Origin: Candidatus Binatia bacterium
GTDB taxonomy: Bacteria > Desulfobacterota > Binatia > Bin18
Assembly: GCA_022826945.1 (NCBI GenBank)
Contig: JAJDTY010000080.1
Span: 34,005-98,004 of the forward strand
Reading direction: 5' to 3'
DNA: 64,000 bases
Positions 2,372 to 63,526 of this stretch are shown here, piece by piece (the stretch's first letter is position 1; every line of letters starts with the position of its first letter). A model generated the notes under the pieces. The model saw only the letters and a program-made list of their open reading frames with translations, made no database searches and was not told where the DNA came from. The position numbers and the translations under genes were made by a program.

Positions 2372-2394
2372 CACAGGAATCTCACCGCAACAGG

Positions 2395-25857: not shown

Positions 25858-25956
25858 ACGGACCCTCAACGGAGATGTTGGCGCGTCTACTCTTTGCTCC
25901 GGTGAGGAGCAGGGAGCCGCTCACGCGTGTCACGGCCGCAGTTCTGTCTCAAGAGC

Positions 25957-29020: not shown

Positions 29021-29056
29021 ACGCTCCCTCCATATTTGCTCTTGAGGAGAGTCGGC

Positions 29057-43818: not shown

Positions 43819-44379
43819 GTGGCTGACCATCCAGTGTGGCTCTCACAAGGCGTCCCTCAGGGGGAGACACCGCCGCTCGTGGTATTTCACTATCCACTCG
43901 CTTTTACCCTTGTCAGCCGAGAAGCTGGAGCCCCGTTGACGGTGACGGTAGAAACCGCACTTGATGATATTCGTGCGGAAGACCTTGTATACATGGAGAA
44001 GGTTCTGAATTTTGTGACGGAACAGCATCAGAGCGGCCAAGTCCGGCTGCGTGACTCTCAACCCTCCCCAGCGGGAACAATGCCAACCGGTCGGATGTGC
44101 GACCTGTGTGAGATGGCCCATTATACGCAGTGGTATGCCGAGTTTTACGCTCCCTTCCGTTTTACCATTCTCGACTGCGATTCCTGTGAGGTGCCTATCG
44201 CGGTCCTTGGCGAGCACCGCGTTGATGTGCGTCCGGAAGAGGTTGCCTTTATGGAAGACGCTCTTAATCTCGTGGCCGAACAAAAGTATATCGGGAAATT
44301 CCCAAAGTGGATGTTCGACCACAATATGCGGCAGATTCCGGATCATTATCATTTTCATGTCCGCCCCTTGTTATGGTGA
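43819..44379 (+). CDS. Hypothetical protein with internal duplication, CxxC/CxxC pair and HxHxH (HIT-like) C-terminal motif
   Basis: 'CDLC...CDSC...DHYHFHVRP'. The two halves align (LAFTLVSREAGAPLTVTV...VYMEKVLNFVTEQ vs FRFTILDCDSCEVPIAVL...AFMEDALNLVAEQ). Confidence 0.5.
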   Translation: MADHPVWLSQGVPQGETPPLVVFHYPLAFTLVSREAGAPLTVTVETALDDIRAEDLVYMEKVLNFVTEQHQSGQVRLRDSQPSPAGTMPTGRMCDLCEMAHYTQWYAEFYAPFRFTILDCDSCEVPIAVLGEHRVDVRPEEVAFMEDALNLVAEQKYIGKFPKWMFDHNMRQIPDHYHFHVRPLLW

Positions 44380-44434
44380 AAAGAGGAAACGTGCCCTCCA
44401 ATCATTTGCAAAAGCTGGACATGTTTCCTCTTTG
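44379..44434 (+). repeat. Palindromic element copy X (intergenic, between the stop codon at 44377-44379 and the ADH start)
   Basis: aaaagaggaaacgtgccctccaatcatttgcaaaagctggacatgtttcctctttg. 12-bp arms agaggaaacgtg / catgtttcctct with one G.U. Confidence 0.8.
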
Positions 44435-44459
44435 CGGCGAGGAAAAGGAAGTGACGACT

Positions 44460-45485
44460 ATGCAGGCGATGTTATTGCTTGGCCCAGGGAAGATTGCCTG
44501 TCAGGAATTACCCGTGCCAGAACCGGGCCCCGAAGATGTCGTGCTGAAGGTTGAGTCTGCCTTGACCTGCGGAACGGACCTCAAGGCCTTTTTGCGTGGC
44601 CATCCCAAGATGCCCCCGCCGATCCGTTTTGGCCATGAATACTCCGGAACGATTACCGCGCGCGGGTCGCAGGTCAAAAATTTCTGTGAAGGCGACGCGG
44701 TCATGCTTGCGCCAACCGGCCCGTGCGGTCGCTGTTTTTATTGTCAGCATGATCAAGAAAACCTGTGTACGTCACTCATGACGACCATGGCATTTGGCGG
44801 TTATGCGGAATATGTCAGCCTTCCCGGTCGGATTGTCAGATCCAATATGTTCCAGAAGCCCAAAAGCCTGCCTTTTGTCGAAGCCGCGTTGTTGGAGCCC
44901 GTGTCGTGCGTGGTCTTTGGATTACAGCAGGTGACGTTCACGCCCGAAGACACGGTGGTGATTATTGGCGCAGGTGGCTTTGGGCTGTTACACCTCATCC
45001 TCTTAAAAATGTTTGGTCTGGAACGGGTCTATATGGTGGCTCGGAACCCGGACCGGGCCAGAGTTGCGGACGAACTTGGTGCATGCCGCGTGATTGCCCG
45101 TCCGGCTGAGGAGGCCCGGGAGGAAGTCTTGGAGGCCACGGGGGGCCGGGGGGCTGACCTGGTCATTGAGTGTACGGCCCAGCCGAGCGTTTGGGAGGAA
45201 TCCCTGTTCTTTGCTCGTCCCGGCGGTCAAGTTGTTCTCTTTGGTGGCTGCCCGCAGGGAACCAAGGTTTCGCTGGACGCAACTCGGCTGCACTACGATC
45301 AGATTCATCTGTCGAGCCCCTTTCACTTTAACCCGGCCGCTGTGCGGAAAGCGTCCGAATTGCTCATATCCGGGCAGATTCCAACCGAGTACCTGATTAG
45401 TGGTCGCTACCCCCTGGTTGACCTCTGCCAGGCGTTCGATCGGATGCGGCGTGGCGAGGGGATCAAATACGAAGTCGTACCCTGA
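44460..45485 (+). CDS. Zinc-dependent alcohol dehydrogenase (threonine/sorbitol DH-like MDR)
   Basis: 'CGTDLKAF', 'GHEYSG', the structural Zn site 'CGRCFYCQHDQENLC', and 'IIGAGGFG'. Confidence 0.85.
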   Translation: MQAMLLLGPGKIACQELPVPEPGPEDVVLKVESALTCGTDLKAFLRGHPKMPPPIRFGHEYSGTITARGSQVKNFCEGDAVMLAPTGPCGRCFYCQHDQENLCTSLMTTMAFGGYAEYVSLPGRIVRSNMFQKPKSLPFVEAALLEPVSCVVFGLQQVTFTPEDTVVIIGAGGFGLLHLILLKMFGLERVYMVARNPDRARVADELGACRVIARPAEEAREEVLEATGGRGADLVIECTAQPSVWEESLFFARPGGQVVLFGGCPQGTKVSLDATRLHYDQIHLSSPFHFNPAAVRKASELLISGQIPTEYLISGRYPLVDLCQAFDRMRRGEGIKYEVVP

Positions 45486-45500
45486 GGGCGAGAGGCTGTC

Positions 45501-46745
45501 ATGAAGATTGTCACCCCGAACGAAGCCGTACGAGCCATCCCCGATGGCAGCATTGCGATTTTCCCCCACAGCTGTGTCGAACCGACGACCTTCTATACGG
45601 CTTTCCAGCACGAGGTTGAGCGCTTTAACAACCTAACCGTGTATTCCGGGCTGGCGTTTGGGAAATATCCCTTTCTGGAGAAGGGATTGGGGACGAATTT
45701 CCGCTATGTGACCTGGCAGGCCGCGCCCCAGCTTCGGCGTTTGTTCAAAGAAAACGACCCGCGCAAGATTGGTTTTGCCCCCATGCGGTTTAGCGAGATC
45801 ACCCGCATTGTGAACAAAAACGGGATTATCAAGCCGGATGTCGTCGTGGCGCAAGTCTCGCCGCCCGATCAGGATGGAACGGTCAGTTTGGGGATTTCGG
45901 TCAGTATCTATCAAGACTTCATCGATAGCGCGAAAATGGTGATCGCTGAGATAAACACTCATATGCCGGCAACGCACGGCCAGAGCCGAGTGCCGGTTGA
46001 GAAAATTGATTTTGCCCTAGAGTCCGCCGAACCTCTCGGGACCTATCGCTCGCCCCACCAAAGCGAGCGTGACGCCACAATCGTTGACTATGTTCTCGAC
46101 CTAGTTCCTGACTTGGCTTGGGTGCAGCTCGGTATAGGTTCCGTCCCCGATGCAGTGCTGGGCCGATTGGCAGACAAACGAGGGGTGAACCTCTACTCGG
46201 GCATGCTGTCACAGGGGCTGATCCAGTTTCTTGATCAGGTGAAACATACCCCCAAGATTCTCACCGGCGAGCTTGCCGGTGACCAGGAATTCTTTGATTT
46301 TTGCGGTCGCAATCCGCTCGTAGAAATGGCGACCGTCGATGTCACCCACAATATTCTGGAGTTGGCAAAGCTGCCGCGCTTCGTCTCCATCAATTCCGCC
46401 GTGGAAATTGACCTGCACGGCCAGAGTAATGGCGAGACCATTGGACCGGTACAGATCAGCGGCGTCGGCGGCAGCCTCGACTATGTGGAAGCTGCGGCGC
46501 TGGCCGAGGACGGTGTGTCCATTATTGCCCTGCCGTCGACGACCGAAGATGGCAAGCGCTCAAAGATTGTCGCCAGCCTAGCCACTGGCGCCGTTGTCAC
46601 CACGCCCCGCTTTTGTACCGACTATATCGTGACCGAATACGGCATCGCCCGCATGAAGGGCAAAGACCTCCACGGGCGAGCCGAAGCCCTCATCCAAATC
46701 GCCCACCCGGATTTTCAGCCTGAATTGGAGAAACAGTTAGGATAG
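45501..46745 (+). CDS. Acetyl-CoA hydrolase/transferase family protein (second copy)
   Basis: 'SGVGGSLDYVEAA', 'VTEYGIARMKGKDLHGRAEALIQIAHPDFQ'. Paralog of 6314..7633. Confidence 0.8.
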   Translation: MKIVTPNEAVRAIPDGSIAIFPHSCVEPTTFYTAFQHEVERFNNLTVYSGLAFGKYPFLEKGLGTNFRYVTWQAAPQLRRLFKENDPRKIGFAPMRFSEITRIVNKNGIIKPDVVVAQVSPPDQDGTVSLGISVSIYQDFIDSAKMVIAEINTHMPATHGQSRVPVEKIDFALESAEPLGTYRSPHQSERDATIVDYVLDLVPDLAWVQLGIGSVPDAVLGRLADKRGVNLYSGMLSQGLIQFLDQVKHTPKILTGELAGDQEFFDFCGRNPLVEMATVDVTHNILELAKLPRFVSINSAVEIDLHGQSNGETIGPVQISGVGGSLDYVEAAALAEDGVSIIALPSTTEDGKRSKIVASLATGAVVTTPRFCTDYIVTEYGIARMKGKDLHGRAEALIQIAHPDFQPELEKQLG

Positions 46746-46907
46746 GAACTGTTCCGTTCGTCCATGTGAGGGATGATCCATATCCGGTTTCTCGTCGCTC
46801 GCCTTTTTTCTCTCCGACCTGTTTGCTACGCTCAGTCTCTCGCTGGTACCGTATGTATCGCTTGCCGAGGCTGCCAGGCAGGAACCAGTCTGCATGAGGG
46901 AACGATT

Positions 46908-48191
46908 ATGATTGAACGGGCCGCTATCCTGAGCACGGGGGATGAAATCACGACCGGTAAAGTCGTTGATACCAACTCTAACTATATTGCGGATAAGCTG
47001 ATTGAAGCCGGGCTAGACGTTGCCTCAATTGTCACGGTTGGCGATGTGACAGAGCGGATTGTATGGGCCTGGGAACAGGCCATGGTGCACGCCGACGTAA
47101 TCATTTCCACCGGTGGTATTGGACCCACGGCAGATGATCTCACGACCGAACTGGTCGCCAAGGTTGCCGGAGTCGGGTTAACCTTCTCTGAAGAAGTCGC
47201 TGAGAATATTCGGCGGATTTTTGCCTCGCTGAACCGCACCATGCCGGAGAATAATCTCAAGCAAGCTCAGTTCCCCGCCGGAGCGACCATTATTCCCAAC
47301 CATCTCGGGACGGCGCCGGGCTACCGCCTAACGCTGGAGACACCGCACGGTCGGAAGCATCTGATTGTCCTGCCAGGTGTCCCGCGCGAGATGAAGCCCA
47401 TGATGGAAGAAAGCGTTATCCCCTGGATTGGTGAAATGCGGGGTGGGGGCGATGTCTTTCTGACCCGGACGTTTCAGACCTTCGGTATCAGTGAGTCCGG
47501 ACTGGACGAACTGGTGTCCGGCGTGGTTGCTGAAGACGAGGGGAAGCTGGCCTTTCGGGCCAACTTCCCCCAAATTTCCATGCGCGTAACTGTCCGGGGG
47601 AAGGCAGACGAGATTGAGCGACGGGTCGAAGTACTGGCGCAGCGGCTGCGCGAGAAAATCGGTCCGTATGTCTACGGCGAGGGTGACGTCAGTATGGAAG
47701 GCGTGGTGGGGCAGCTCCTCAAAAAGCAGGGGAAAACAGTCGGCTTTGCCGAGGCGTGCTCGGGCGGCCTGAGCAGCCATCGCCTGACGAATGTGCCGGG
47801 CAGCTCAGACTATTTTCTGGGTAGCATTATTGCCTATTCGGACAAAGCAAAAACCCAGTTGCTCAATGTCAACCCCGACACCCTGAGTCAGCACGGCGCG
47901 GTCAGCGAGGAGACAGTCAAGGAAATGGCTAGCGGCGTCCGAACCCGTCTGGGAACCGATATTGGTGTTGCGGTAACAGGTATTGCCGGACCGGACGGCG
48001 GCACCCCGGACAAGCCGGTCGGGACTGCCTGCCTGGCGCTTGCCATGGATGGAACACTGGTGTCGCGGCAGTACAAGCTCTGGGGCAACCGGGAGTGGAT
48101 AAAAACCTTGACCTCCCAGCTGTGCCTGGACTGGGTGCGGCGTGCGCTTCTTGACATTCCGATTGCAGAATCAGGATTTATACGTCGCTAA
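46908..48191 (+). CDS. cinA: CinA: competence/damage-inducible protein A (MoCF domain + nicotinamide-nucleotide amidase)
   Basis: 'AILSTGDEITTGKVVDTNSNYIADKL', 'TGGIGPTADDLT', and the C-terminal 'AESCSGG'-type region 'AEACSGGLSS'. Confidence 0.9.
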   Translation: MIERAAILSTGDEITTGKVVDTNSNYIADKLIEAGLDVASIVTVGDVTERIVWAWEQAMVHADVIISTGGIGPTADDLTTELVAKVAGVGLTFSEEVAENIRRIFASLNRTMPENNLKQAQFPAGATIIPNHLGTAPGYRLTLETPHGRKHLIVLPGVPREMKPMMEESVIPWIGEMRGGGDVFLTRTFQTFGISESGLDELVSGVVAEDEGKLAFRANFPQISMRVTVRGKADEIERRVEVLAQRLREKIGPYVYGEGDVSMEGVVGQLLKKQGKTVGFAEACSGGLSSHRLTNVPGSSDYFLGSIIAYSDKAKTQLLNVNPDTLSQHGAVSEETVKEMASGVRTRLGTDIGVAVTGIAGPDGGTPDKPVGTACLALAMDGTLVSRQYKLWGNREWIKTLTSQLCLDWVRRALLDIPIAESGFIRR

Positions 48192-48207
48192 GGAAAGAGC
48201 GGACTCC

Positions 48208-48801
48208 TTGTTGATTCGCGCCTTCATCGCAGCTAATCTAGCCCCCTCAGTAAGCGAAGAAATGGCAAAAGTCCAATCCGCTCTCCAAAAGGCAAGAGGC
48301 GATATACGCTGGGTCAAACCGCAGGGATTTCATCTGACGTTTCGGTTTCTTGGGAATATCGAGCCGACTCGCGTTGCGTCTATCCTGACCGCATTGCGAG
48401 CAGCCGTGAAGTTTCATCCTCAGTTCCGAGTCCGAACGCAAGGACTCGGGGCTTTTCCTTCACTCACCCGGCCGCGGGTGCTGTGGGCTCGTCTGACCGG
48501 CGACGGTCTACAAGAGCTGCATACAAAGATCGAGTCGGCTCTCGGCTCCTGCGGCTTTCCGTCCGAGGACCGCGCGTTTCGCCCGCATATCACCCTGGGC
48601 CGGGTCCGTTCCCTGCGTGGCTGGAGTCAGGTACTGGAAGGGATTAAGGTGTATCTCCAGTACGATTTTGGTGAGAGTCTTATTGACAAAGTGACCCTGT
48701 ATCAGAGTGACCTGAGGCCAGGCGGAGCAGTATATACGCCACTCGGCGTCGCTCCTCTGGATCCTATTCAAGGTATATCAATCCACCGCCTACAACAGTA
48801 A
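48208..48801 (+). CDS. thpR: RNA 2',3'-cyclic phosphodiesterase (LigT/ThpR, 2H family)
   Basis: Two HxT/S motifs: 'FHLTFRFLG' and 'PHITLGR'. Probable TTG start after AAGGAAAGAG; the exact start is uncertain. Confidence 0.8.
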   Translation: MLIRAFIAANLAPSVSEEMAKVQSALQKARGDIRWVKPQGFHLTFRFLGNIEPTRVASILTALRAAVKFHPQFRVRTQGLGAFPSLTRPRVLWARLTGDGLQELHTKIESALGSCGFPSEDRAFRPHITLGRVRSLRGWSQVLEGIKVYLQYDFGESLIDKVTLYQSDLRPGGAVYTPLGVAPLDPIQGISIHRLQQ

Positions 48802-48810
48802 GGAGTGTAT

Positions 48811-49857: not shown

Positions 49858-49863
49858 CGTTGT

Positions 49864-50349: not shown

Positions 50350-50370
50350 CGAACGGAAAGAGTAGCCGCC

Positions 50371-53013: not shown

Positions 53014-53047
53014 AGTGTAACTGTTTTACGCTTTTGACGGAGGCTGC

Positions 53048-54220: not shown

Positions 54221-54509
54221 ACTGAATCGGCAGTACCGGCACAAAGACCGGCCAACGGACGTGTTGTCGTTTCCGCTGGCCGATGAACGCTGTCCGACTC
54301 TTCTGGGCGACGTGGTCATATCGATCGATACCGCCCGTCGGCAGGCCCGGCAGCGCAAACGCGCCTTTACCGACGAACTGCGCGCCCTGCTCATCCACGG
54401 CATTCTGCACCTGCTCGGCTACGACCACGAAGTGTCGGACAGCGAAGCCGTCCGCATGCGCCGAAAAGAGCGTGAGCTGAAGGTCCTGTTGCAAGATCAT
54501 GATCGATAA
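54003..54509 (+). CDS. ybeY: Endoribonuclease YbeY (start uncertain: ATG at 54003 or GTG at 54105)
   Basis: 'RPTDVLSFPL' and the zinc motif 'HGILHLLGYDH'. Confidence 0.85.
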   Translation: MNAPKKPRSAATKKVVPSAAIASRPGLSVDISGTVPGLSRPQIRRWSQTILRHLKLKQAELSLAFVTDQTIHELNRQYRHKDRPTDVLSFPLADERCPTLLGDVVISIDTARRQARQRKRAFTDELRALLIHGILHLLGYDHEVSDSEAVRMRRKERELKVLLQDHDR

Positions 54510-54524
54510 GCGCGACAAAGGCTG

Positions 54525-54604
54525 AAGTCGTAAAACAGACCGCCTTGAAACCGGGACCGGCGGCATGTCTAGCTCTCGTGTGTTTGGAGGACACGTTTAC
54601 GCTT
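54525..54604 (+). repeat. Degenerate palindromic-element copy U (ybeY-lnt intergenic)
   Basis: Shares 'catgtct...ttggaggacacgtt.ac.ctt' with copy V. The left arm aagtcgtaaaac pairs only partly with the right arm gtttacgctt. Confidence 0.45.
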
Positions 54605-54648
54605 GTTGGCCTTTCCAGGCTGGGAGAGTCAGGCTAGGCTGCGTCTGT

Positions 54649-56280
54649 ATGCAGCGTTTGTGGCCCATTCCGCTCGCCGGTGTAAGCGGTGTTCTGCTTG
54701 CCCTGGCCTTTCCGAAAGTCGATTGGAATATTCTGGCCTGGGTTGCTTTTATCCCGCTACTCTGGATGACGCAGGGGCAGACGCTACGCCGTGCTTTCAG
54801 CCTTGGCTGGATTGCCGGTATGGGGTTTTATCTCTGTACGCTGTATTGGGTCGTCGATACGATAGGCCTGTACAGCAATATTCCTCATATTATTGCCGTC
54901 GGTCCGTTGCTCCTGATGTGTGCCATTTTATCAGCATACACCGGAGTCTTTGCTGTCGGCCTGTGTGTCTATCACAAGAGCCGGCCGCACAACAGCGGTT
55001 GGTCACTCCTCGTATTCGGACCCATGCTCTGGGTCGCCCTGGAATGGGTTCGCTCGTTCTTTTTTATTGGATTTCCCTGGGTCAGTCTGGGCTATTCACA
55101 ATACAACTTCGTAAACCTGATTCAGTTTGTCGAATACACTGGTGTCTACGGGCTGTCGGCGCTGGTGATCTTTGGCAATGCTGTTCTCTTTCTCGTTTTT
55201 TCCCGTCAGGGCCGTGGGCGCTTGGTGCTGGTTCTACTCCTGGTGATCGCGGGATTGTGGGGCTGGGGAAACTGGCGTCGCAGTCAGTTGGCTGCGCTAC
55301 CCACGACCCATACGCTGCACGTTGGGATCGCCCAGGGGAATATCGCTCAGGATCAAAAATGGGATCCTGATTACCAAGAAGTCACCATCGCCCGCTATGA
55401 GCAACTCACGCGTCAGATCACGGAACAAGCAACCGACCTGGTTATTTGGCCGGAGGCAGCAGTGCCATTTTTCTTTCAGTCCGAGGTGACCTACCGTGGC
55501 CGGCTGCTAGACTTGGCCCAAGACACCAACACGCCCATCCTGTTTGGGAGCCCTGCCTTTCGAGTCGATGATACGGAACTCACGCTGTTCAACCGGGCCT
55601 ATCTCCTGTCTCCGGACACGACGATTCTGGGGCATTATGACAAGATGATCCTTACCCCCTTTGGCGAATACATCCCCTTTCAAGACAGTGTACTCTTCTT
55701 TCTGGATAAATGGGTGGAAGGGATAGGCGACTTTGCGCCAGGGACGACGCCGACCGTTTTTTCTCTTCCCCTAAAGAGTCGACCTGTCCTCCACCCGGAT
55801 GACAAAGCTGGACACGTTGATGCCTTTGAGACTTTTGGCGTACTCGTCTGCTATGAGGGTGTGTTCCCTGACCTTGCGCGTCGCTTCGTTCATAATGGTG
55901 CGCGGCTGCTGATCAATGTGACCAATGATGCCTGGTTTGGAGAGACTTCGGCTCCCTATCAACATCTGGCCATGGAGGCCATGCGGGCCGTCGAGAATCG
56001 AGTGCCCCTGGTGCGGTCCGCAAATACCGGGATCTCAGCCATCGTGCATATTGATGGACAGATTCAGGCCCAAACCGCGCTCCTGGAGACCACCTTTATT
56101 GCCGACCAGCTTGCCTGGCCTCACGTGACCTCCTTCTATACCCAGTACGGTGATTGGTTTGTGACGTTGTGCGTCGTCGGGACGCTCGTTATGCTAGGCT
56201 ACATAGGGATAATTGTATTATTCGTTAAGCGAAACGGAGGAGGCGGAGATGCTGGCAGAAATCAGAGAAAAATTACATGA
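54649..56280 (+). CDS. lnt: Apolipoprotein N-acyltransferase
   Basis: Multi-TM N-terminus. CN-hydrolase domain with 'VLVCYEGVFPD' (catalytic Cys) and 'NDAWFG'. Confidence 0.9.
   Translation: MQRLWPIPLAGVSGVLLALAFPKVDWNILAWVAFIPLLWMTQGQTLRRAFSLGWIAGMGFYLCTLYWVVDTIGLYSNIPHIIAVGPLLLMCAILSAYTGVFAVGLCVYHKSRPHNSGWSLLVFGPMLWVALEWVRSFFFIGFPWVSLGYSQYNFVNLIQFVEYTGVYGLSALVIFGNAVLFLVFSRQGRGRLVLVLLLVIAGLWGWGNWRRSQLAALPTTHTLHVGIAQGNIAQDQKWDPDYQEVTIARYEQLTRQITEQATDLVIWPEAAVPFFFQSEVTYRGRLLDLAQDTNTPILFGSPAFRVDDTELTLFNRAYLLSPDTTILGHYDKMILTPFGEYIPFQDSVLFFLDKWVEGIGDFAPGTTPTVFSLPLKSRPVLHPDDKAGHVDAFETFGVLVCYEGVFPDLARRFVHNGARLLINVTNDAWFGETSAPYQHLAMEAMRAVENRVPLVRSANTGISAIVHIDGQIQAQTALLETTFIADQLAWPHVTSFYTQYGDWFVTLCVVGTLVMLGYIGIIVLFVKRNGGGGDAGRNQRKIT
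55773..55828 (+). repeat. Palindromic element copy W, in frame inside lnt
   Basis: aaagagtcgacctgtcctccacccggatgacaaagctggacacgttgatgcctttg, encoding LKSRPVLHPDDKAGHVDAFE just upstream of the catalytic CYE motif. Confidence 0.75.
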
Positions 56281-57353
56281 GTTGAGCGCACGCATTGAGA
56301 GTCTTGGGAGGCATCTTTGACATCCCGGATAAGGAAGCCCGTGCCGCCGCACTGGAAGAACAAACGCTGGCCGACGGATTTTGGCAAGATCAGGAGAAGG
56401 CGCAAGCCATCCTCAAGGAGCGAGCAAGCTTACTCGACACGGTAACGGAGTGGAAAAAGCAGACCCAGACCGTATCTGACGCGCTGCTCTTTCTGGAACT
56501 GGCCGAAGCCGGAGACGCCGAGGCGGTTGAAGAAGTCGAACGGACGGTGCCCGAGCTTGAAACGATCGTGAGTCGGGCAGAGTTGCAGTGGATGCTGGGC
56601 GGAGAACACGATGGGCAGAGTGCCATCGTCAGTCTCCACCCCGGCGCCGGTGGTCTCGAAGCCCAGGACTGGGCCGATATGCTCCTCCGACTCTATCTGC
56701 GCTGGGCGGAACGCCGCAGCTATAGCGTAGAGATGGCTGAACACCTGCTTGGTGAAGGCGGGGGGGTAAAAAGTGCGACCTTTACCGTTGAGGGGGCCTA
56801 CGCTTACGGCTATCTGCGGGCGGAGGCGGGCATTCATCGGCTCGTTCGAATTTCGCCGTTTGATGCCAATGCCCGGCGGCATACCTCCTTTGCCTCTGTT
56901 TTTGTTTATCCGGATATTGATGAAGCTGTCGAAGTTGATATCCGTCCTGAAGATTTGCGCGTTGATACCTACCGGGCCAGTGGGGCTGGGGGACAGCACG
57001 TCAACAAAACCGACTCCGCGATCCGTCTGACCCACATCCCGAGTGGGATCGTGGTGGCGTGTCAGAATGAACGGTCCCAACATCGGAATCGAACCATGGC
57101 GATGAAAATTCTCCGTGCCCGTTTATACGAGCTGGAGATGGAAAAACAAAAGGAGAAGATGGAGGGCCTACATAAAAGCAAAAAGGATATTGCCTGGGGA
57201 AGTCAGATTCGCTCGTATGTCCTTCATCCCTACCGGATGGTCAAAGACCATCGCACCAACGTGGAGGTCGGGGATACAGACGCGGTCCTGGATGGCGATA
57301 TCGATCAGTTTATCGAAGCCTATCTGCTCCAACAGTCGACGGCAGCCGAGTAA
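56249..57353 (+). CDS. prfB: Peptide chain release factor 2, join(56249..56317,56319..57353) via programmed +1 frameshift
   Basis: Frame 0: MLAEIREKLHELSARIESLGRHL-TGA. The +1 frame continues DIPDKEARAAALEE...; 'SGAGGQHVNKTDSA' (GGQ) and the 'SPF' motif are present. Confidence 0.95.
56306..56320 (+). other. prfB recoding site: SD-like GGGAGG, 3-nt spacer, CTT TGA C
   Basis: gggaggcatctttgac. The in-frame TGA is at 56318-56320, and the +1 reading resumes at GAC at 56319. Confidence 0.9.
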
Positions 57354-57489
57354 TGGTCTCGACCGTTCTCGGTCCGCGAACCGGGTGGCGAGACCAGCGT
57401 AATCTCTTGGCAATCATCCGGGAAGCAGGTACACTCCTGCGACCTGTCCTTGCCTGAGATCAAGGGGTAAGCGCCTCTAGGGGGAGACC

Positions 57490-58407
57490 ATGAACGCGTT
57501 GACGATTGAACGAATTCCGGAACTAAACGACCCTGTCCTGATTGTCGCCTTTGCCGGCTGGAACGATGCCGGTAGCGCGGCGACGCATGCCACGCAGTTC
57601 CTCATCAAGCGCCTCCAGGCACAGCGTTTCGCGACGATCGACCCTGAAGAATTTTATAATTTCAGTGAGGTTCGGCCCCACGTGCGCCTGCGAGACGGGC
57701 TCTACCGCGAGATTCGCTGGCCGGCCAATGAATTCTTTGCGACGAGCGCAGAGCAGCTCAAGCGCAGCATGGTCCTGGGTCAGGGCATTGAACCGCATCT
57801 CCGCTGGAAGGCGTATTCAGCGGCCTGTCTGGATGTTGCCAAGCAGTGTGGGGTGCGCCTCGTGATTACCCTCGGGGCGCTCTTGGCCGATGTGGCCTAT
57901 TCCAGGCCGGTACGCGTGGTTGGATTTAGCAGCGACCCCGATATTGCGACGCAACTCCAACTCACCCAGTCCCGTTACGAGGGGCCAACGGGCATCGTGG
58001 GGGTGCTGAATGATGCCTGCCGTCAGGCTGGATTGACGTCCATCAGTTTCTGGGCCAACGTACCGCACTATATTTCCGCTTCTCCAAACCCCAAGGCAGC
58101 CCTGGCTCTCGTCAGCCGTCTTGAGTCCTTTCTCCAATTCGCCCTGGATACCACCGAGCTGGTGACAGGCGCGGCGGAGTTTGACGCACAGGTCGCCAAG
58201 GCGATTACCGAAAACCCCAACCTGGCCGCCTACGTCAAACGCTTGGAAGAACAGGAGCAGGAAGAGGGGCTGGAAACGGAGCCCGCTGCGCAGGACAAAG
58301 CCGGCAACGGACACGGCAACGGCAATGGGCATGCCAACGGCAAGGATATGGCTGAAGAACTTCAGCGTTTCTTGCAGCAGCGTAAGGATCGTAAAGATGA
58401 CGAGTGA
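57490..58407 (+). CDS. PAC2 (proteasome assembly chaperone 2-like) family protein
   Basis: 'PVLIVAFAGWNDAGSAATHA' is the family N-terminal signature. Confidence 0.7.
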   Translation: MNALTIERIPELNDPVLIVAFAGWNDAGSAATHATQFLIKRLQAQRFATIDPEEFYNFSEVRPHVRLRDGLYREIRWPANEFFATSAEQLKRSMVLGQGIEPHLRWKAYSAACLDVAKQCGVRLVITLGALLADVAYSRPVRVVGFSSDPDIATQLQLTQSRYEGPTGIVGVLNDACRQAGLTSISFWANVPHYISASPNPKAALALVSRLESFLQFALDTTELVTGAAEFDAQVAKAITENPNLAAYVKRLEEQEQEEGLETEPAAQDKAGNGHGNGNGHANGKDMAEELQRFLQQRKDRKDDE

Positions 58408-59851
58408 GGCCCGGTCCGGCCCGGATAAGTCCGTGTATCTGGTGAATCTGGGTTGCCCTAAAAATCTCGTGGACGGCGAGGTCATGCTCGGCCTGCTGGC
58501 GGATGCGGGCTATACGCTAAGCCTCGACCCGGAACAGGCCGGGGTCCTGATGGTCAATACGTGCAGCTTTATCGACGAGGCCAAGGAGGAGTCGATTGAG
58601 ACGATCTTGGATCTGGCGGCCTATAAGGCGACGGGGACAAAGAGGAAACGTATCCTCTCAGACAAAGCTAGACATGTTTCCTCATTCGAGAAACAGCTCA
58701 TTGTGACCGGTTGTCTCGCTCAGCGTTATGGCCGGGAACTGCGCGAACTCCTACCCGAAGTGGACGTTTTTGTGGGAACGGGAGAGTTTCTGCGGATCAC
58801 CGAGATATTGGCACAGAAGCAGCGCGTGCTTGATGGTCCCACCCTGTATCTGGGGGCCTCCCATGTCCTGCCGGATCATACCGTTCCGCGTATCCCGACC
58901 ACCCATTTTTACTCCGCCTATCTCAAGGTTGCCGAAGGCTGCAACCATAAATGCGCCTTTTGTATTATTCCGAAAATTCGTGGCTTACAGGAAAGTCGGC
59001 CGATTGCTTCTCTCGTGGCCGAAGCCACCGGACTGGTTGCGCAAGGGGTGCGAGAAATCAATCTCATTGCGCAAGACCTGACCGCCTACGGGCGAGAGCG
59101 CCGTGATGGGACGACTCTGCTCGCCCTGCTCAAATCCCTCGTGCATGTTGAGGGGCTGGACTGGATTCGGCTGTTGTATTGCTATCCGAATTATCTCGAT
59201 GAATCCCTGTTAAAGTTCATTGCCGCGGAAGAAAAGGTGTGTCCGTATATTGATATGCCCCTCCAGCACATCAGCGACCGGATGTTGAGGCGGATGAAGC
59301 GGGAGAAAAGCGGGGACGGCATTCGCCGTGTATTGGATCGGATTCGGGACGCTATTCCCGGTGTGATTGTACGCTCGTCTTTTATTGTAGGCTTCCCTGG
59401 TGAGCGAGAGGAGGATTTTCGACAACTGTGCGATTTCGTGACCGAGGCGAAACTCGATCACGTGGGGGTGTTTCGCTATTCCCAGGAGGAAGGGACGGCT
59501 GCGGGCATAATGACCGACCAAGTTAGCGAAGAGATTAAGGAGGAACGCTGGCATAAATTGATGGCCTGTCAGGCCGAGGTCGTGCGTAAAAAAAATAGCG
59601 CGCTGGTGGGTGAGGAACGATCGGTACTCGTCTGTGGTCAGGACGATCACGGCCGCTGGTGGGGACGAATGCAGTGCCAGGCTCCGGATATCGATGGCAT
59701 CGTCTTCCTGGAACAGTGCCTGGCTGACAGCGGCGACATGGTCCGCGTCCGGATTACCGGGGCGTCCGGCTATGACCTGCAAGCGCGCTGTCTTCCCGAA
59801 CAGCCGCTGCAAACGCCCATAGCTCTTGACTTGGCAGCCGCTTCTCCCTAA
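58397..59851 (+). CDS. rimO: Ribosomal protein S12 methylthiotransferase RimO
   Basis: MTTase N-domain 'VNLGCPKNLVDGE...NTCSFI', radical SAM 'EGCNHKCAFCIIP', and a TRAM domain. Start at MTSEARSG (58397). Confidence 0.9.
   Translation: MTSEARSGPDKSVYLVNLGCPKNLVDGEVMLGLLADAGYTLSLDPEQAGVLMVNTCSFIDEAKEESIETILDLAAYKATGTKRKRILSDKARHVSSFEKQLIVTGCLAQRYGRELRELLPEVDVFVGTGEFLRITEILAQKQRVLDGPTLYLGASHVLPDHTVPRIPTTHFYSAYLKVAEGCNHKCAFCIIPKIRGLQESRPIASLVAEATGLVAQGVREINLIAQDLTAYGRERRDGTTLLALLKSLVHVEGLDWIRLLYCYPNYLDESLLKFIAAEEKVCPYIDMPLQHISDRMLRRMKREKSGDGIRRVLDRIRDAIPGVIVRSSFIVGFPGEREEDFRQLCDFVTEAKLDHVGVFRYSQEEGTAAGIMTDQVSEEIKEERWHKLMACQAEVVRKKNSALVGEERSVLVCGQDDHGRWWGRMQCQAPDIDGIVFLEQCLADSGDMVRVRITGASGYDLQARCLPEQPLQTPIALDLAAASP
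58639..58688 (+). repeat. Palindromic element copy Y, in frame inside rimO
   Basis: aaagaggaaacgtatcctctcagacaaagctagacatgtttcctcattcg, encoding KRKRILSDKARHVSSFE between 'LAAYK' and 'LIVTGCLAQRY'. Confidence 0.75.
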
Positions 59852-59884
59852 GGTGTCTGTCCTTTTTATCTCGACCGTGGTGAA

Positions 59885-59940
59885 AAAGAGTTGGCGTGCC
59901 CTCCACTCATCCAAATAAAGCTGGACACGTTGACTCTTTG
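59885..59940 (+). repeat. Palindromic element copy Z (rimO-dksA intergenic)
   Basis: aaagagttggcgtgccctccactcatccaaataaagctggacacgttgactctttg. Arms agagttggcgtg / cacgttgactct pair over 12 bp, three of them G.U. Confidence 0.8.
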
Positions 59941-59951
59941 GAGAAGGCGTC

Positions 59952-60371
59952 ATGAGAAAAACGTTCCTCAAAAAAATGCGGACGACGCTCGCTGGCCAAA
60001 AGCAGCAAATCCTGATGCAGCTTGACGAAGAGATTCGAGAGGGTAAAGAGAGTGAACTGGACGAAGGAATGGATACCTACGATCTCGCCAGCGAGGAGCG
60101 CGAACGAGAAATCCATCTGATCCTGAGTGACCGTGATCGAGATAAACTGCAAGCCATAGAAAACGCACTGGAGCGGATCGAAGAGGGCGAATACGGTATT
60201 TGCGAAGACTGCGAAGAAGAGATCGCCCAAGCACGCCTTGAAGCGTTGCCGTTCACCAGACTATGTGTCGCCTGTCAAGAGGAACGCGAAAAGGAAGCGC
60301 GCTTTCAGCGCCGTATTGATGACGGGGGTGGATTCGGTCGGTCCAACTTGGTTGATCTGGACGACGGGTAA
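59952..60371 (+). CDS. TraR/DksA-family C4 zinc-finger protein
   Basis: 'GEYGICEDCEEEIAQARLEALPFTRLCVACQ'. Confidence 0.8.
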   Translation: MRKTFLKKMRTTLAGQKQQILMQLDEEIREGKESELDEGMDTYDLASEEREREIHLILSDRDRDKLQAIENALERIEEGEYGICEDCEEEIAQARLEALPFTRLCVACQEEREKEARFQRRIDDGGGFGRSNLVDLDDG

Positions 60372-60448
60372 AATCAGCCCCGTCTTTTTCCTCGGTCTAT
60401 TTTGGTTGCCTGCGCAAGGCACTCCCTCTGTCGGCCCGCAGTGATGAG

Positions 60449-61885
60449 ATGCGACCCGACGACCACACGCTCCTCACTACGCTTTTTCGGACGGCCATTG
60501 AGGCGGTTCATCCACGCCATCTGATCCCACAGACTGTTACGATTGAAAAGGAACAGCTGCTCGTTCGGCCACGGGACAAAGAGGGAACGTATCCAGCTTT
60601 TTTAGATGATTGGGGGGCACGTTCCCTCTTCGAGGCCGCTGATGCGTTGACGCTCACTCTGACGGGTCGCCTCTTCCTGATTGGGGCAGGGAAGGGGGCA
60701 GGCAGTATGGCCCAGGCGCTAATGCCCGTGCTCGGTCCGAGGCGCATTGGCGGGTGTGTCATCATTCCGAGCGAGCAAGCGGTGTCCGACCTGTCCCTAC
60801 CTGGAATACGGGTTGTGCAAGGAGAGCATCCATTGCCCGGACCGGGCAGTGAGTCCGCGACCCAAGTGCTTGTGGAGAGCCTCTCCCAGGTCCAACCCCA
60901 CGACCTCGTCCTGGTGTGTCTGACTGGCGGAGCCTCCAGCCTGCTTGTGCGTCCCGCGGTCGGGCTGACGCTTTCGGACAAGACCCTTACCAATGCTGTC
61001 TTGTTGGAATGTGGGGCGGATATCCTGGCGCTGAACACCGTACGCAAACATATATCCCAGGTAAAAGGCGGCTGGCTCGCACACCACGCGCAGCCCGCGA
61101 CTGTGGTCAGTCTGATTCTGTCGGACGTGATTGGTGACGATCTGAGTGTGATCGGCTCAGGCCCGACCGTCGCTGATCCCACGACGTTTATGGACGCGTG
61201 GCGGGTGGTGGAGCAGTACGGCATCGCACCGCGGCTCCCCCAGTCCGTGTGCACACATCTGCAGCAAGGCGTCCGCGGGAGCATACCTGAGACGCCAAAA
61301 CCCGGAGACTCGCTCTTCTCTCGCGTCCACAATATGCTGATTGGGTCGAATCACCTAGCGTTGCAGGCTGTCCGCGAGGCTGCCGCGCACCGAGGGCTAC
61401 GCTCTCACCTGATTGCTCAACCTCTCGCTGATGACTCACTCGTGGCCGGACATAATTTTGCCCAAACTCTGCGTGCCGTTCGTCAGCACTGCTCTGGCCC
61501 GACGTGTCTGCTGGCTGGTGGCGAGACAACGGTACAGGTCCGAGGCACTGGGAAAGGAGGGCGCAATCAAGAGTTTGCGCTGGCTGTCGCCCAGGAACTC
61601 GCCGGGGAAGCCGGGTGGAGCCTGCTGAGTGCGGGAACGGACGGCATAGATGGTCCGACCGACGCTGCCGGAGCCTTTGTGGACGGCCGGACGCTGGGTC
61701 GAGCGCGTCGTAAAAATCTCGATCCCGCTCGATTCCTGCGTAATAATGACACTTACACCTTCTTTTCTGTTCTCGGTGACTTATTTCGCCCAGGCTCAAC
61801 AGGAACAAACGTGATGGATATTAAAATTGCGCTTGTGGATCCTCCCGACGCTGAAGAGTGCTTCGACAAACAGGACAGAGAGTAG
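60449..61885 (+). CDS. Glycerate 2-kinase / hydroxypyruvate reductase-like (DUF4147 + MOFRL)
   Basis: 'LIGAGKGAGSMAQAL', 'LLAGGETTVQVRGTGKGGRNQEFALA', 'GTDGIDGPTDAAGA'. Confidence 0.8.
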   Translation: MRPDDHTLLTTLFRTAIEAVHPRHLIPQTVTIEKEQLLVRPRDKEGTYPAFLDDWGARSLFEAADALTLTLTGRLFLIGAGKGAGSMAQALMPVLGPRRIGGCVIIPSEQAVSDLSLPGIRVVQGEHPLPGPGSESATQVLVESLSQVQPHDLVLVCLTGGASSLLVRPAVGLTLSDKTLTNAVLLECGADILALNTVRKHISQVKGGWLAHHAQPATVVSLILSDVIGDDLSVIGSGPTVADPTTFMDAWRVVEQYGIAPRLPQSVCTHLQQGVRGSIPETPKPGDSLFSRVHNMLIGSNHLALQAVREAAAHRGLRSHLIAQPLADDSLVAGHNFAQTLRAVRQHCSGPTCLLAGGETTVQVRGTGKGGRNQEFALAVAQELAGEAGWSLLSAGTDGIDGPTDAAGAFVDGRTLGRARRKNLDPARFLRNNDTYTFFSVLGDLFRPGSTGTNVMDIKIALVDPPDAEECFDKQDRE

Positions 61886-61888
61886 AGT

Positions 61889-62239
61889 ATGTCCCGTCGT
61901 CTGTTGTTACGCGGAGTGGCGGCTTTTAACGCGGGCCATTTCTTTGAAGCGCATGAAATCTGGGAAGCGCTCTGGAATGAGACGGTTGGCGAAGAGAAAC
62001 GTTTTGTCCAGGGGCTTGTGCAGTTGGCCGCCGGTTACCTCAAGCTCTCCAGCGCTCAATACCCCGGCGCTCTCAAACTGCTCACGCGCGCTTGTCAGAC
62101 CCTGCGGACCTATCCACCAATATATGCGGGACTCCAAGTTAGCCTGCTGTCTGACGCCAGCCTCACCGTTGTCCGCCAACTGGAAACGGGGAGGACGGGT
62201 ACAGATATTCAGCCTCCGCAAATCCAAACTGTGCCGTAA
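61889..62239 (+). CDS. DUF309 domain protein
   Basis: 'FNAGHFFEAHEIWEALW...FVQGLVQLAAGY'. Confidence 0.7.
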   Translation: MSRRLLLRGVAAFNAGHFFEAHEIWEALWNETVGEEKRFVQGLVQLAAGYLKLSSAQYPGALKLLTRACQTLRTYPPIYAGLQVSLLSDASLTVVRQLETGRTGTDIQPPQIQTVP

Positions 62240-62379
62240 GAACCCTCGCTTTTCTTATTCTGAATGGACATTCAGTCAGTTTTTCTTGACAAAACCCCAG
62301 TGTCAATAATATGATTATCCATCCGGACAGTGCGAGGATGGAGTGGAAAAAAGTGAGGTCCATGTCCGAAGAAGTCTGC

Positions 62380-63417
62380 ATGGCTGTCTACACCGTCCTT
62401 GACCGCAAAGCCGTTAATCGTCTCGTCAAAGACTATGGATTAGGGCGTCTGTCAACTATTCATGGTATTTCTGCCGGGTCGGTGAACACCCATTATGGCC
62501 TTGAGTCCGCGAAGGGGAAATTCATTCTGCGGATCGATGAGGTCAAAGACACCAGCGATGTGCAGCGTGAAGTCGACTTTCTGCTCTTCCTGCGTAAACA
62601 TGGCTTTCCGTGCCCACGGCCGGTGGCTGATAAAAATGGGTCCTATCTCCAGCACTACGAAAAGAAAGCGGTCTCCATCTATCGTCATCTGGCCGGTAAA
62701 GACTTCTCGGCCGCAACGCTCACCACTGACCATATAGAAAAGATTGGACAGACCCTGGCTCGGCTCCATCTCATTGGCCAGGAATATGATACCCCGATCA
62801 GAAATCGGTTTGCCTTTGATCGTGTACGTAGCATCTATCAAAGTCTGCGTGGCCGGATTGCGGTCCATCTGAAGCATATTGGTCACGTTCTGGATGATGA
62901 AATCGCCCATCAGGAAGAATATCGGGAAGAAAAGCTACCAAAAGGTATGATCCACGGTGACCTCTTTCCTGATAACGTCCTGTTTCGTGGTGGAAGAGTG
63001 GTTGGGGTGCTCGACTTTGAAGCGGCCTGTTTTGGAAAGTTTATTGCCGACCTGGCAACTGCCGTAAACGCCATGTGCTATCACGAGGAGCGCTACCATA
63101 TCGGTCGGTTCAACGCCCTCCTTGACGGCTATCAGTCCGAACGTACGCTGTCGCTGGCCGAGTGGGACGCCTTTCCGAATGAGCTCCGTTTTTCCGCCTT
63201 CCGCTTTACCCTGACCCGTCTACGTGATTTTTTCTTTCGTCATATGGATGAAAAACGGCGCGTGAATAAGGATTATCGGGAATTCTTTCACCGTCTCAGA
63301 ATCCTCCGCCGGGAGCGGAGCGGTGGGATGGACCAGATGCTCCTCACGATGGCAACGGGCTATGATTACCGCAAGTATCAAAAGATCCACGCTGAGGAAA
63401 AAGGCGTGAACGCCTAA
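62380..63417 (+). CDS. thrB: Homoserine kinase type II (APH/protein-kinase fold)
   Basis: 'MAVYTVL...GISAGSVNTHYGL' and 'IHGDLFPDNVLF'. An alternative ATG lies at 62362. Confidence 0.7.
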   Translation: MAVYTVLDRKAVNRLVKDYGLGRLSTIHGISAGSVNTHYGLESAKGKFILRIDEVKDTSDVQREVDFLLFLRKHGFPCPRPVADKNGSYLQHYEKKAVSIYRHLAGKDFSAATLTTDHIEKIGQTLARLHLIGQEYDTPIRNRFAFDRVRSIYQSLRGRIAVHLKHIGHVLDDEIAHQEEYREEKLPKGMIHGDLFPDNVLFRGGRVVGVLDFEAACFGKFIADLATAVNAMCYHEERYHIGRFNALLDGYQSERTLSLAEWDAFPNELRFSAFRFTLTRLRDFFFRHMDEKRRVNKDYREFFHRLRILRRERSGGMDQMLLTMATGYDYRKYQKIHAEEKGVNA

Positions 63418-63433
63418 GTCCGGTACAGGAAAC

Positions 63434-63480
63434 GAAGAGGAAGCGTGTCCATGTCTGATTGGAGGACACGTTCACTCTTC
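63434..63480 (+). repeat. Short-loop palindromic element copy V (thrB-accC intergenic)
   Basis: gaagaggaagcgtgtcc-atgtctgattgga-ggacacgttcactcttc. 17-position stem with a 2-nt internal mismatch and one G.U. Confidence 0.7.
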
Positions 63481-63526
63481 GCCCGCTCCTGCATCCTGAC
63501 AACGTTGCGGAGGCACCCAGATCACT

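Follow-up and report, generated by a model that had tools for sequence, protein, structure and literature searches.

Rickettsia palindromic elements (RPEs; Ogata et al. 2000/2002) were first reported as repeats of ~150 bp; they occur in Rickettsia (Alphaproteobacteria) only (PMC10969869) and comprise ten described sequence families there (PMC10969869, PMC3733652). Classical REPs are 20-40-nt palindromes with a conserved GTAG (or CGTC) tag at one end (PMC3733652). REP/REPIN elements are mobilised by RAYT tyrosine (HUH, Y1) transposases (PMC3116915, PMC3733652, bioRxiv 10.1101/2022.05.22.493013); some REPs are intragenic, as exceptions to their extragenic location, and the targets of some are small palindromes (PMC3733652). 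Bacterial MITEs, including Correia/NEMIS, ERIC, Nezha and RUP, are derived from DDE insertion sequences (ISs) and leave target-site duplications (TSDs) (PMC10969869).

We analysed a 64,000-nt stretch of DNA (the window) from a Candidatus Binatia bacterium, in which a first-pass annotation had recognised a family of short palindromes and read them as structured RNA acting between genes. Profile and covariance-model (CM) searches placed eight copies in the window, six clear and two degenerate (Table 1). The annotation had counted at least four copies (X, W, Y and Z, whose coordinates agreed with ours to 1-2 nt) plus two variants, and all six proved real: V is a genuine copy, and U, for which 54525-54604 had been given, is a degenerate copy occupying part of that interval, the rest of which is not homologous. 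The census had missed copy T, which is 85% complementary to X, and the eighth copy. The nhmmer match to U (E 7e-11) was circular, coming from a small first model built from seven window copies, U included; relatives have a variable ~4-kb gene island at the U locus.

Table 1. Copies of the 54-nt repeat in the window, with strand, setting and search scores
Copy	Position	Strand	Structure and setting	Search result
X	44380..44433	+	full 54 nt; G-subfamily arms GAGGAAAC/GTTTCCTC; intergenic, abutting TGA stop of ORF 43819-44379, 26 nt to ATG (44460) of alcohol-dehydrogenase-like gene	CM 70.4 bits, E 3e-16; also nhmmer
U	54556..54604	-	degenerate remnant; spacer from ybeY stop (54509) to lnt	family HMM 22 bits; CM match weak, partial (54564-54595, E 3.8)
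W	55773..55826	+	54 nt; in frame in lnt (apolipoprotein N-acyltransferase, ~54691-56280)	CM 47.5 bits
Y	58639..58686	+	48 nt (divisible by 3) after a 6-nt loop deletion; in frame in rimO (~58397-59851)	CM 36.5 bits
Z	59885..59939	+	55 nt; rimO-dksA spacer, end 12 nt 5' of dksA ATG (59952)	CM 51.6 bits
T	60578..60631	-	full 54 nt; in frame in glycerate-kinase/MOFRL ORF (60449-61885)	CM 65.3 bits; inverted-repeat search
V	63434..63480	-	47 nt, 7-nt loop deletion; intergenic, past APH/homoserine-kinase-like gene (stop 63417)	CM 50.5 bits
Eighth	25849..25895	+	degenerate, 47 nt; convergent-gene spacer; GAG-TAA serves as stop codon of ORF 25096-25857	CM 23.3 bits, E about 1e-3

The scheme that the annotation saw in these copies holds: AAAGAG, an arm, CCTCCA, a loop, AAGCTGGACAYGTT, an arm and CTCTTT. 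The core motif matched nine times where 1.96 matches were expected (0 of 100 shuffles). Each 54-bp unit consists of two 17-bp inverted arms (AAAGAG-KRAAC-GTGTCC ... GGACAC-GTTYM-CTCTTT) around a loop of ~20 nt, whose edges (TCCA ... GCT) are conserved though unpaired and whose centre is free. Across the family, 133 copies measure 54 nt and 58 measure 55 nt.

We scanned GTDB, taking a single genome for each species, for the pattern (at least 117 stretches) and filtered the matches by profile. This gave at least 225 copies, with at least 187 distinct full-length sequences and at least 138 independent sites. Among the matches listed, all that passed the filter came from ~16 Candidatus Binatia MAGs (one labelled Thermodesulfobacteriota), and only two pattern matches lay outside Binatia, both failing the profile. 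Many of the MAG accessions presumably belong to sponge-metagenome projects, judging by their record names. Rfam returned no match at the gathering threshold for the whole window and none at E≤1 for 58500-63600; the plasmid and viral collections searched contained no matches, and the literature searched yielded no description of the repeat. This mobile hairpin repeat has apparently not been described before. Copies within a genome differ at a median of 9-16 positions, near-identical pairs being few, and the subfamilies are defined mainly by one arm pair (TA in 116 copies, GC in 49), the very pair that the annotation had reported as doubly substituted between X and Z (G-C versus T-A).

Presence/absence polymorphism among relatives is clean. 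We made 34 comparisons of filled and empty sites, of which 29 aligned cleanly, those for X, Y and T among them; the insert measured 54 nt in 21 of these, 55 in two, 56 in four and 52 in two. The ortholog of the X site in L077 is empty, the insert being exactly 54 nt without duplication, and the empty site of T in L104 likewise differs by exactly 54 nt. The Y site is filled in L001, L003 and L104 and empty in L002, L004, L005 and L006 (RimO of 468 aa), and RimO alleles carry zero, one or two copies (468, 484 and 504 aa). In 32 of the 34 comparisons the ambiguity of the junction was just 0-1 nt, so there is no target-site duplication, and direct repeats in the flanks occurred at chance level. 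The unit is pasted in precisely, in either orientation, without a TSD. Its 17-bp terminal inverted repeats, small size, dispersal and occurrence in both orientations would suit an ordinary MITE, in which an IS with a DDE transposase has lost its interior and the remnant is moved by cut-and-paste after a staggered cut in the target. The 29 clean comparisons contradict that origin on the TSD criterion, however, and the repeat falls below the usual MITE size of 70-300 bp (PMC3733652). With neither a parent IS nor solo arms in the 1.1 Mb of Binatia DNA that we sampled, and no match in the plasmid and viral collections, we regard a MITE as most improbable.

Across the 138 sites, G stood at -5 in 78 (p 1e-11) and C at +5 in 79 (p 5e-12); A was all but absent from -6 (3 sites, p 9e-11), as was T from +6 (one site, p 3e-13). 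Positions -1 to -4 were only weakly biased. The two halves of the target are independent (44 joint occurrences versus 44.7 expected), and the preference is present already in empty alleles. The target signature is weak and two-fold symmetric: not-A, G at -6/-5 and C, not-T at +5/+6. This symmetry suggests that a symmetric enzyme recognises the target as duplex DNA, which argues against an RNA/cDNA intermediate, in which the transcribed hairpin would be reverse-transcribed (by an RT of the retron, group II intron or DGR type) and patched into nicks or gaps. Precise insertion without a TSD and a hairpin RNA that is stable from either strand would fit such a route; against it, the surroundings of the copies examined showed no RT gene, the copies lack poly-A and priming-site features and form no series of 5' truncations, and those that are partial have internal loop deletions. 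We give it scarcely any credence.

The same 1.1 Mb contained no solo arms and no longer elements bounded by the same arms: all 401 arm matches fell within complete short copies except two that look like chance. No transposase lay between or beside the copies examined, close pairs included. The sole Y1/RAYT-like gene found (L019:166-834; Y1_Tnp PF01797, E 3e-10) is flanked by repeats of a different REP family. Transposition of the IS200/IS605 type usually depends on a conserved tetra- or pentanucleotide immediately upstream, and no such sequence precedes the Binatia repeat at the 138 sites.

Three of the eight window copies (W, Y and T) lie within ORFs. The annotation had placed the family in intercistronic regions; this holds for X and Z, and the intergenic window copies do stand 12-47 nt before the next start codon, but W, Y and T sit in frame in genes. 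Nor are all copies co-oriented with the flanking genes, as had been claimed: U, V and T are reversed. Family-wide context statistics, which rest on gene calls from a home-made caller, placed 16 of the 138 sites (about 12%) within ORFs, and the spacers used were divergent, convergent and tandem in near-background proportions. Relative to transcription, 31 independent sites had the same orientation and 23 the opposite (p=0.34); a crude and weak test gave no replication-strand bias (p 0.24).

The lnt, rimO and glycerate-kinase ORFs run uninterrupted across their copies. Copy W encodes the peptide LKSRPVLHPDDKAGHVDAF just upstream of the strand bearing the catalytic Cys of Lnt (VCYE), where the protein has ~17 residues more than P. 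aeruginosa Lnt (5n6m); the copy is shared by all six relatives, L001-L006. The peptide from copy Y, TKRKRILSDKARHVSSF, lies between the N-terminal MTTase domain of RimO and its radical-SAM domain. That from T, approximately KEGTYPAFLDDWGARSLF, lies near the N-terminus of the glycerate kinase, and the PDB alignment of the kinase starts beyond the insert. Encoded peptides across the family are of the KRKRVLQSDKKAGHVSSL or RGNVSSNRHEMLDTFPL type. On average, 3.7 of the six frames of a copy are open, compared with 2.1 in composition-matched shuffles. Since the unit spans 18 codons and stops are absent from most of its frames, insertions into genes add an 18-residue loop and leave the gene unbroken, and in this way the repeat persists in lnt, rimO and the glycerate-kinase gene.

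The covariation seen by the annotation was confirmed statistically. In the family alignment, 93.4% of the stem cells of the 17-bp arms are paired, and 12 of the 17 pairs show double-sided changes, compared with 5.8 in shuffles (none of 500 reached 12). The covariation score was 0.165, versus 0.096 in shuffles and at most 0.072 in slid controls, and compensations were found at independent loci. Such strong stem covariation, together with RNA hairpins of -19 to -24 kcal/mol (z about -4.5 to -5), would be expected of a structured RNA that acts in transcripts (in processing, stability, termination or translational control downstream) and whose hairpin is kept by selection. Also consistent with this are the ends of X and Z, 26 and 12 nt before start codons; three transitions in the left arm of Z that create G.T (G.U) pairs on the plus, sense strand; and the SD-like GAGG of the arms and CCUCC of the loop (GGAGG on the reverse strand). 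The strand specificity of G.U pairing that the annotation had inferred is not borne out, however. Across the family there are 104 G.T and 124 A.C, and when the copies are read in the sense of the transcript G.U is no commoner than A.C (53 versus 73). Copy X forms a stable hairpin on either strand, each with a single G.T and a single C.A, and the two strands of X, Z, T and V fold with energies equal within about 2 kcal/mol (-19.0 for plus and -18.8 for minus in Z), so that antisense folds match sense folds. An RNA role is further opposed by the random gene-relative orientation, the presence of copies in divergent promoter regions and within ORFs, and the lack of an Rfam match, even at E≤1 for 58500-63600. 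The terminator scan called no copy. An intrinsic terminator is a GC-rich hairpin with a short loop and a U-tract behind it, placed at gene 3' ends in the direction of transcription; the repeat has a loop of ~20 nt and a tail of just TTT, and lies in both orientations and in divergent spacers as well.

Orthologous copies, moreover, decay without compensation. Their divergence is 6.2% in the stem and 5.6% in the loop, and by weighted counts pair-breaking single changes (61) far outnumber compensated ones (4.8). The orthologs of Z in L001-L006 carry differing, uncompensated arm changes; those of V in the same relatives are full length (54-55 nt). In W, an old coding copy, the hairpin has decayed (fold z -0.05), and the fold of U is not significant (z -0.23). 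After insertion, copies go unmaintained and decay by point mutation. We therefore consider action as RNA very unlikely. What stands of the proposal of a mobile or amplified structured RNA is the mobile, amplified REP/RPE-type palindrome, attested by copies across Binatia and by the clean polymorphism; the RNA action is not supported.

Elements diverge slightly less than their flanks (6% versus 9%), so some constraint on resident copies in place may exist. This would suit DNA sites domesticated by the host along the lines proposed for certain REP/BIME elements, with hairpins or cruciforms that bind nucleoid, gyrase or IHF-like proteins or act as signals in replication or recombination. The host would keep such sites, and a single-copy domesticated transposase would spread them, on the model of the REPIN-RAYT symbiosis. 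The presence of the family in ~16 Binatia species (among the matches listed) with many orthologous copies, its old and diversified within-genome population, the conserved yet unpaired TCCA and GCT of the loop edges, and the RAYT-like protein encoded in Binatia point the same way. Yet resident stems decay at the rate of the loop, 12% of sites are within ORFs, and the one RAYT-like gene seen adjoins another REP family. We know of no protein that binds the Binatia repeat, which also counts against domestication. As the classical GTAG/CGTC tag is absent too (PMC3733652), we consider domesticated sites unlikely.

Together, the results indicate that the repeat is probably a non-autonomous, REPIN/RPE-like mobile DNA element specific to the Candidatus Binatia lineage, with the look of selfish DNA rather than of a strand-specific regulatory RNA. 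Such an element would be mobilised in trans. The enzyme, encoded by the host or by an element, would recognise the hairpin or the paired arms and would join DNA with no stagger between the cuts; it might be a single-strand transposase of the HUH/Y1 (RAYT/IS200-like) class or a recombinase that works as a symmetric dimer. Against this reading, no mobilising gene turned up in the DNA sampled, and the 5' sequence expected of IS200/IS605-type transposition is missing. The needs of DNA mobilisation account for the covariation better than RNA function does: copies still able to propagate would require complementary arms, and intrastrand templated correction of the palindrome is another possible source. 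Effects on mRNA structure or on neighbouring RBSs would be by-products. We can also suggest, tentatively and with more doubt than conviction, a new type of coding-compatible selfish DNA, in which the 18-codon length and stop-poor frames are adaptations for colonising genes as well as spacers. A hitherto unrecognised enzyme would recognise the bare 54-bp hairpin or TIR pair and make a blunt insertion at the midpoint of a target with two-fold symmetry (not-A, G, N4 / N4, C, not-T), by a mechanism unlike that of a DDE MITE or of flank-guided IS200/IS605.

The family offers a clear case outside Rickettsia, in an uncultured lineage, of a palindromic selfish element found routinely in frame in essential genes (lnt, rimO). 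Clean filled and empty alleles, an exact 54-nt unit, the lack of a TSD and a symmetric target make the mobilising enzyme a tractable question. For annotation, copies give rise to 16-18-residue indels between orthologous proteins and can shift predicted start or stop codons; they are also liable to be taken for conserved RNA motifs, since strong stem covariation arises from mobilisation by itself. The repeat is a ready marker for typing Binatia populations.

With MITEs, the Binatia repeat shares terminal inverted repeats, non-autonomy, dispersal and occasional in-frame fusions to host ORFs, but it has no TSD, measures 54 bp rather than 70-300 bp, and has no parent IS in the 1.1 Mb sampled. REP/REPIN elements are likewise short hairpin repeats of up to hundreds of copies without target duplication, lineage-restricted, mostly vertically inherited and diversified within genomes, in which two inverted halves make one long hairpin (Binatia arms 17 bp, 93% paired). 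The Binatia repeat differs in its termini, AAAGAG...CTCTTT with no GTAG/CGTC at either end (consensus of 187 copies), in arms that are not themselves REP-like palindromes, in the 16 of 138 sites that are not extragenic, and in that no RAYT flanked by the repeat was found in 1.1 Mb. From RPEs it is set apart by size (54 bp) and by host (Binatia only, among the matches listed), and nothing so far suggests homology. Neither encodes a transposase of its own, and both are palindromic, dispersed, selfish repeats that lie in intergenic regions and in frame within functional housekeeping genes (PMC10969869, PMC3733652), where they add a short peptide and the gene is kept.

All six places at which the first-pass annotation had reported a palindromic repeat (copies X, W, Y, Z, U and V) display the shared pattern when read, and its core, AAAGCTGGACAYGTT, occurs nine times in the window at ≤3 mismatches, compared to 1.96 occurrences expected (0/100 shuffles). 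A covariance model built from 108 family members and run on the window returned six solid copies (36-70 bits), with U as a weak partial match only. Including copy T, a full copy that the annotation had lacked, and a degenerate eighth copy, the total is 8 copies in 64 kb (see table). U and V align with other window copies only as reverse complements. The repeat is thus real and present above chance, yet it is neither co-oriented with genes nor purely intercistronic, because U, V and T are reversed, while W, Y and T sit inside the lnt, rimO and glycerate-kinase ORFs, respectively.

Location of element copies and other features (window coordinates unless a locus is named)
Feature	Position	Orientation	Details and source
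Copy X	~44380
Copy U	~54556	reverse	degenerate
Copy W	~55773		inside 571-aa ORF (lnt), without stop codons; ORF table
Copy Y	~58639		inside 556-aa ORF (rimO), without stop codons; ORF table
Copy Z	~59885
Copy T	60577-60630	reverse	85% complementary to X (repeat search); inside 478-aa glycerate-kinase ORF, without stop codons (ORF table)
Copy V	~63434	reverse
Eighth copy	25849-25895		degenerate; covariance model 23 bits, E about 1e-3
Possible remnant	29012-29044		13 nt upstream of ATG; covariance model 13.7 bits, E 0.44
50-nt direct repeat	11595-11644 and 12698-12747		82% identity
Very long ORF	16124-23227		about 2,367 aa
ybeY-lnt junction	54509-54691		without variable island
prfB (RF2) frameshift region	56250-56325		short frame from ATG 56250 to CTT TGA C (56317-56323)
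rimO-site comparison	58625-58638 vs L002:8720-8735
Y1_Tnp/RAYT-like gene	L019:166-834 (OZ244620.1, Candidatus Binatia)	minus	MPNHVHVL ... WQ..YFDRAIRD
REP arrays around RAYT-like gene	L019:1-1300

Three further features of the window are recorded here. One sequence (AAGAGTAAACGCTCCCTCCATATTTGCTCTT) may be what is left of the element after an internal deletion, or may be chance; the copy-poor first 44 kb contains a very long ORF; and degenerate copy U is located at the ybeY-lnt junction, where six relatives of the window locus (L001-L006) carry an island of ~4 kb (positions ~500-4650) whose genes differ between them (CAP-domain protein, alpha/beta hydrolase, PhdYeFM antitoxin, MreB-like protein, M10 peptidase).

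Relatives of the window locus, retrieved via their identical DksA protein, carry copies at the same places as the window and at additional places. Many assemblies contain this locus, and 24 contigs were read. When one genome per GTDB species was scanned with an IUPAC pattern that matches 18 of the 26 known copies, at least 117 stretches were identified; among the matches listed, all but two belong to MAGs that bear the name Candidatus Binatia or, in one case, the label Thermodesulfobacteriota. Matches in Litorimonas and Sulfitobacter both fail the profile and are attributed to chance. An nhmmer search of the window and 123 loci (1.12 Mb) yielded 225 copies, 187 of them distinct and full-length, and collapsing orthologous positions left 138 independent sites in this sample. 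The unit spans 54 profile columns (54 nt in 133 copies, 55 nt in 58), with the family consensus AAAGAGTAAACGTGTCC-TCCAATAGACATGAGATGCT-GGACACGTTTACTCTTT. In about 0.92 Mb, the loci contain 54 copies in addition to the 115 for which they were selected; from this and the density in the window, we estimate, roughly and with bias, a few hundred copies for a genome of ~5 Mb. The median difference between copies of one genome is 9-16 positions, and a few pairs are near-identical; the element population within genomes is therefore old and diversified, with some recent activity. Rfam gave no match over the whole window at the gathering threshold and none at E≤1 over 58.5-63.6 kb, a tRNA/tmRNA scan returned nothing, and neither a plasmid BLAST nor a pattern scan of viral contigs produced matches. 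Our literature searches found no account of such a repeat in Binatia or in sponge symbionts.

Among relatives, rimO alleles with 0, 1 and 2 copies encode 468, ~484 and 504 aa in alignment, and the RF2-PAC2 spacer also holds 0, 1 or 2 copies. In a systematic test, both flanks of every copy were joined and then searched for uninterrupted matches, which produced 34 comparisons between filled and empty alleles (with and without the element). The inserted length in the 29 clean alignments was 54 nt in 21 cases, 55 in 2, 56 in 4 and 52 in 2. Window copies with an empty orthologous site include X (in L077), T (in L104) and Y (in L002, L004, L005 and L006). Because the gap slides by only 0 nt (22 of the 34 junctions) or 1 nt (10), no target-site duplication (TSD) is present at these junctions, and a search of the copies' flanks for direct repeats of 1-4 nt likewise revealed none.

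The flanks themselves are biased. G occupies position -5 at 78 of 138 sites (p 1e-11) and A position -6 at only 3 (p 9e-11); the other side is the mirror image, with C at +5 for 79 sites (p 5e-12) and a single site with T at +6 (p 3e-13). Extension of the stem into the flanks is ruled out as the source of this signal, because positions 1-4 are paired less often than chance and the -5 and +5 sides are statistically independent (44 joint occurrences versus 44.7 expected). Because empty alleles already show the bias, it represents a preference for particular targets. Such exact, blunt insertion into the middle of a target with two-fold symmetry is a signature of events at the DNA level.

At the rimO site, filled alleles have GGGGAC or GGAGAC directly 5' of the element and empty alleles have GCAGAC, a difference that could be an excision footprint or no more than divergence between alleles. 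This site is also filled in a different species (locus L104), which suggests either that the insertion is old and was later lost precisely or that the site is a hot spot.

Covariation of the arms, as originally proposed, is borne out by 108 distinct 54-nt copies aligned without gaps. The 17-bp helix shows pairing in 93.4% of cells, double-sided changes in 12 of 17 pairs (5.8 ± 1.3 in shuffles; 0/500) and compensation in 65 cells (20.9 in shuffles); its covariation score is 0.165 versus 0.096, with slid controls reaching at most 0.072. Compensated pairs occur at many unrelated loci, and the main one (T-A 116, G-C 49) separates two subfamilies, both of which can be found in one genome. The strand-specific G.U pairing claimed alongside did not hold up: there is no asymmetry by element orientation (G.T 104 versus A.C 124 cells over 187 copies), by transcript orientation (53 G.U versus 73 A.C in the 93 distinct copies with assignable transcription direction), or by folding of both strands. 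For copies X, Z, T and V, the two strands give equally good folds, whether treated as DNA or as RNA (for instance, RNA folds of the two strands, X -20.8 versus -22.2 and Z -19.0 versus -18.8 kcal/mol). A terminator and promoter scan called no copy, and none resembles an intrinsic terminator.

In 33 orthologous groups, stems diverge by 6.2% and loops by 5.6%, weighted stem differences comprise 61 single pair-breaking versus 4.8 compensated changes, and the old lnt copy, W, folds no better than shuffles (z -0.05). These observations indicate that copies are not maintained once resident. In the simplest reading, arm complementarity would be required of copies that are still propagating. Alternatively, complementarity might be restored by templated correction inside the palindrome; such correction within palindromes is a known DNA process. 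Under either account, the RNA at individual loci does not need this complementarity. Overall, the original observation holds in part and its interpretation finds partial support: the mobile REP/RPE-like repeat that had been proposed is real, whereas its portrayal as a strand-specific intercistronic RNA is not supported.

Gene context was assigned with a home-made codon-usage gene caller, so its figures are approximate: 16 of the 138 independent sites lie within long ORFs that stay open across the element, 54 in tandem, 21 in divergent and 12 in convergent spacers, with the remainder unassigned. Spacer-type proportions are near those of all spacers. Orientation in tandem spacers was the same as that of the genes at 31 sites and opposite at 23 (p 0.34); an apparent bias of 55:31 reflected redundancy and fell to this ratio after orthologous sites were collapsed. 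Inside genes, 13 sites are sense and 3 antisense, and two sense frames dominate, giving KRKRVLQSDKKAGHVSSL-like or RGNVSSNRHEMLDTFPL-like peptides. Copies have a mean of 3.7 stop-free frames of 6, compared to 2.1 in composition-matched shuffles, and the G-subfamily (the arm variant carried by X) averages 4.8. The Lnt insert amounts to about 17 residues more than the P. aeruginosa enzyme (5n6m) and directly precedes the strand with the catalytic Cys, while the glycerate-kinase insert is N-terminal to the region alignable with 1x3l; we infer that both are surface loops.

The start of prfB overlaps the 3' end of lnt. In this gene, an SD-like GGGAGG precedes a canonical programmed +1 frameshift site, and because of this site the ORF list starts RF2 at an internal TTG (56295).

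Of 401 arm matches in the sampled loci, all but two belong to short copies that are complete; neither a longer element sharing these ends (a parent IS) nor solo arms were found there. Among candidate mobilisers, multi-copy protein families in these loci were all metabolic paralogs, and ORFs between closely spaced copies were all housekeeping genes. An HUH-motif search of the same loci identified one 222-aa Y1_Tnp/RAYT-like gene (PF01797, E 3e-10), which lies between arrays of another, GC-rich REP family (GCGGGCTGGAAGCCCGC-ACTCCCAG and GGGAGCGCGGCCATCTTGGCCGC). This arrangement is a classical REPtron; it has no sequence relationship to the 54-nt element and does not occur in the window. Binatia therefore have a classical REP-RAYT system, which in the sampled loci is not visibly tied to the 54-nt element. 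Replication-strand bias, evaluated by a crude and weak test of local GC skew, was not significant. Separately, the window's 50-nt direct repeat contains a GC-rich hairpin (GCGGACGAGCGTCCGC / GCGGCCGAGCGGCC) and could represent a further REP-like family.

New repeat families are common. An exact 18-codon unit, clean blunt insertions with a symmetric target, and frequent residence in essential genes make the 54-nt element a good system for finding the mobilising enzyme, and allow coding-compatible selfish DNA to be studied outside Rickettsia. Like RPEs, it is a palindromic repeat tolerated in frame within housekeeping genes (PMC10969869, PMC3733652); its 54-nt unit and Binatia host set it apart from the RPE families as described. 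Like REPs and REPINs, it is a hairpin repeat without duplication that forms a lineage-bound, diversified population (PMC3116915; bioRxiv 10.1101/2022.05.22.493013), but it is set apart from classical REPs by the lack of a GTAG or CGTC tag and of any RAYT association in the sampled loci. Nor is it a DDE-type MITE, since it lacks a TSD. The 54-nt element belongs among the known small palindromic non-autonomous mobile repeats, as a new one.
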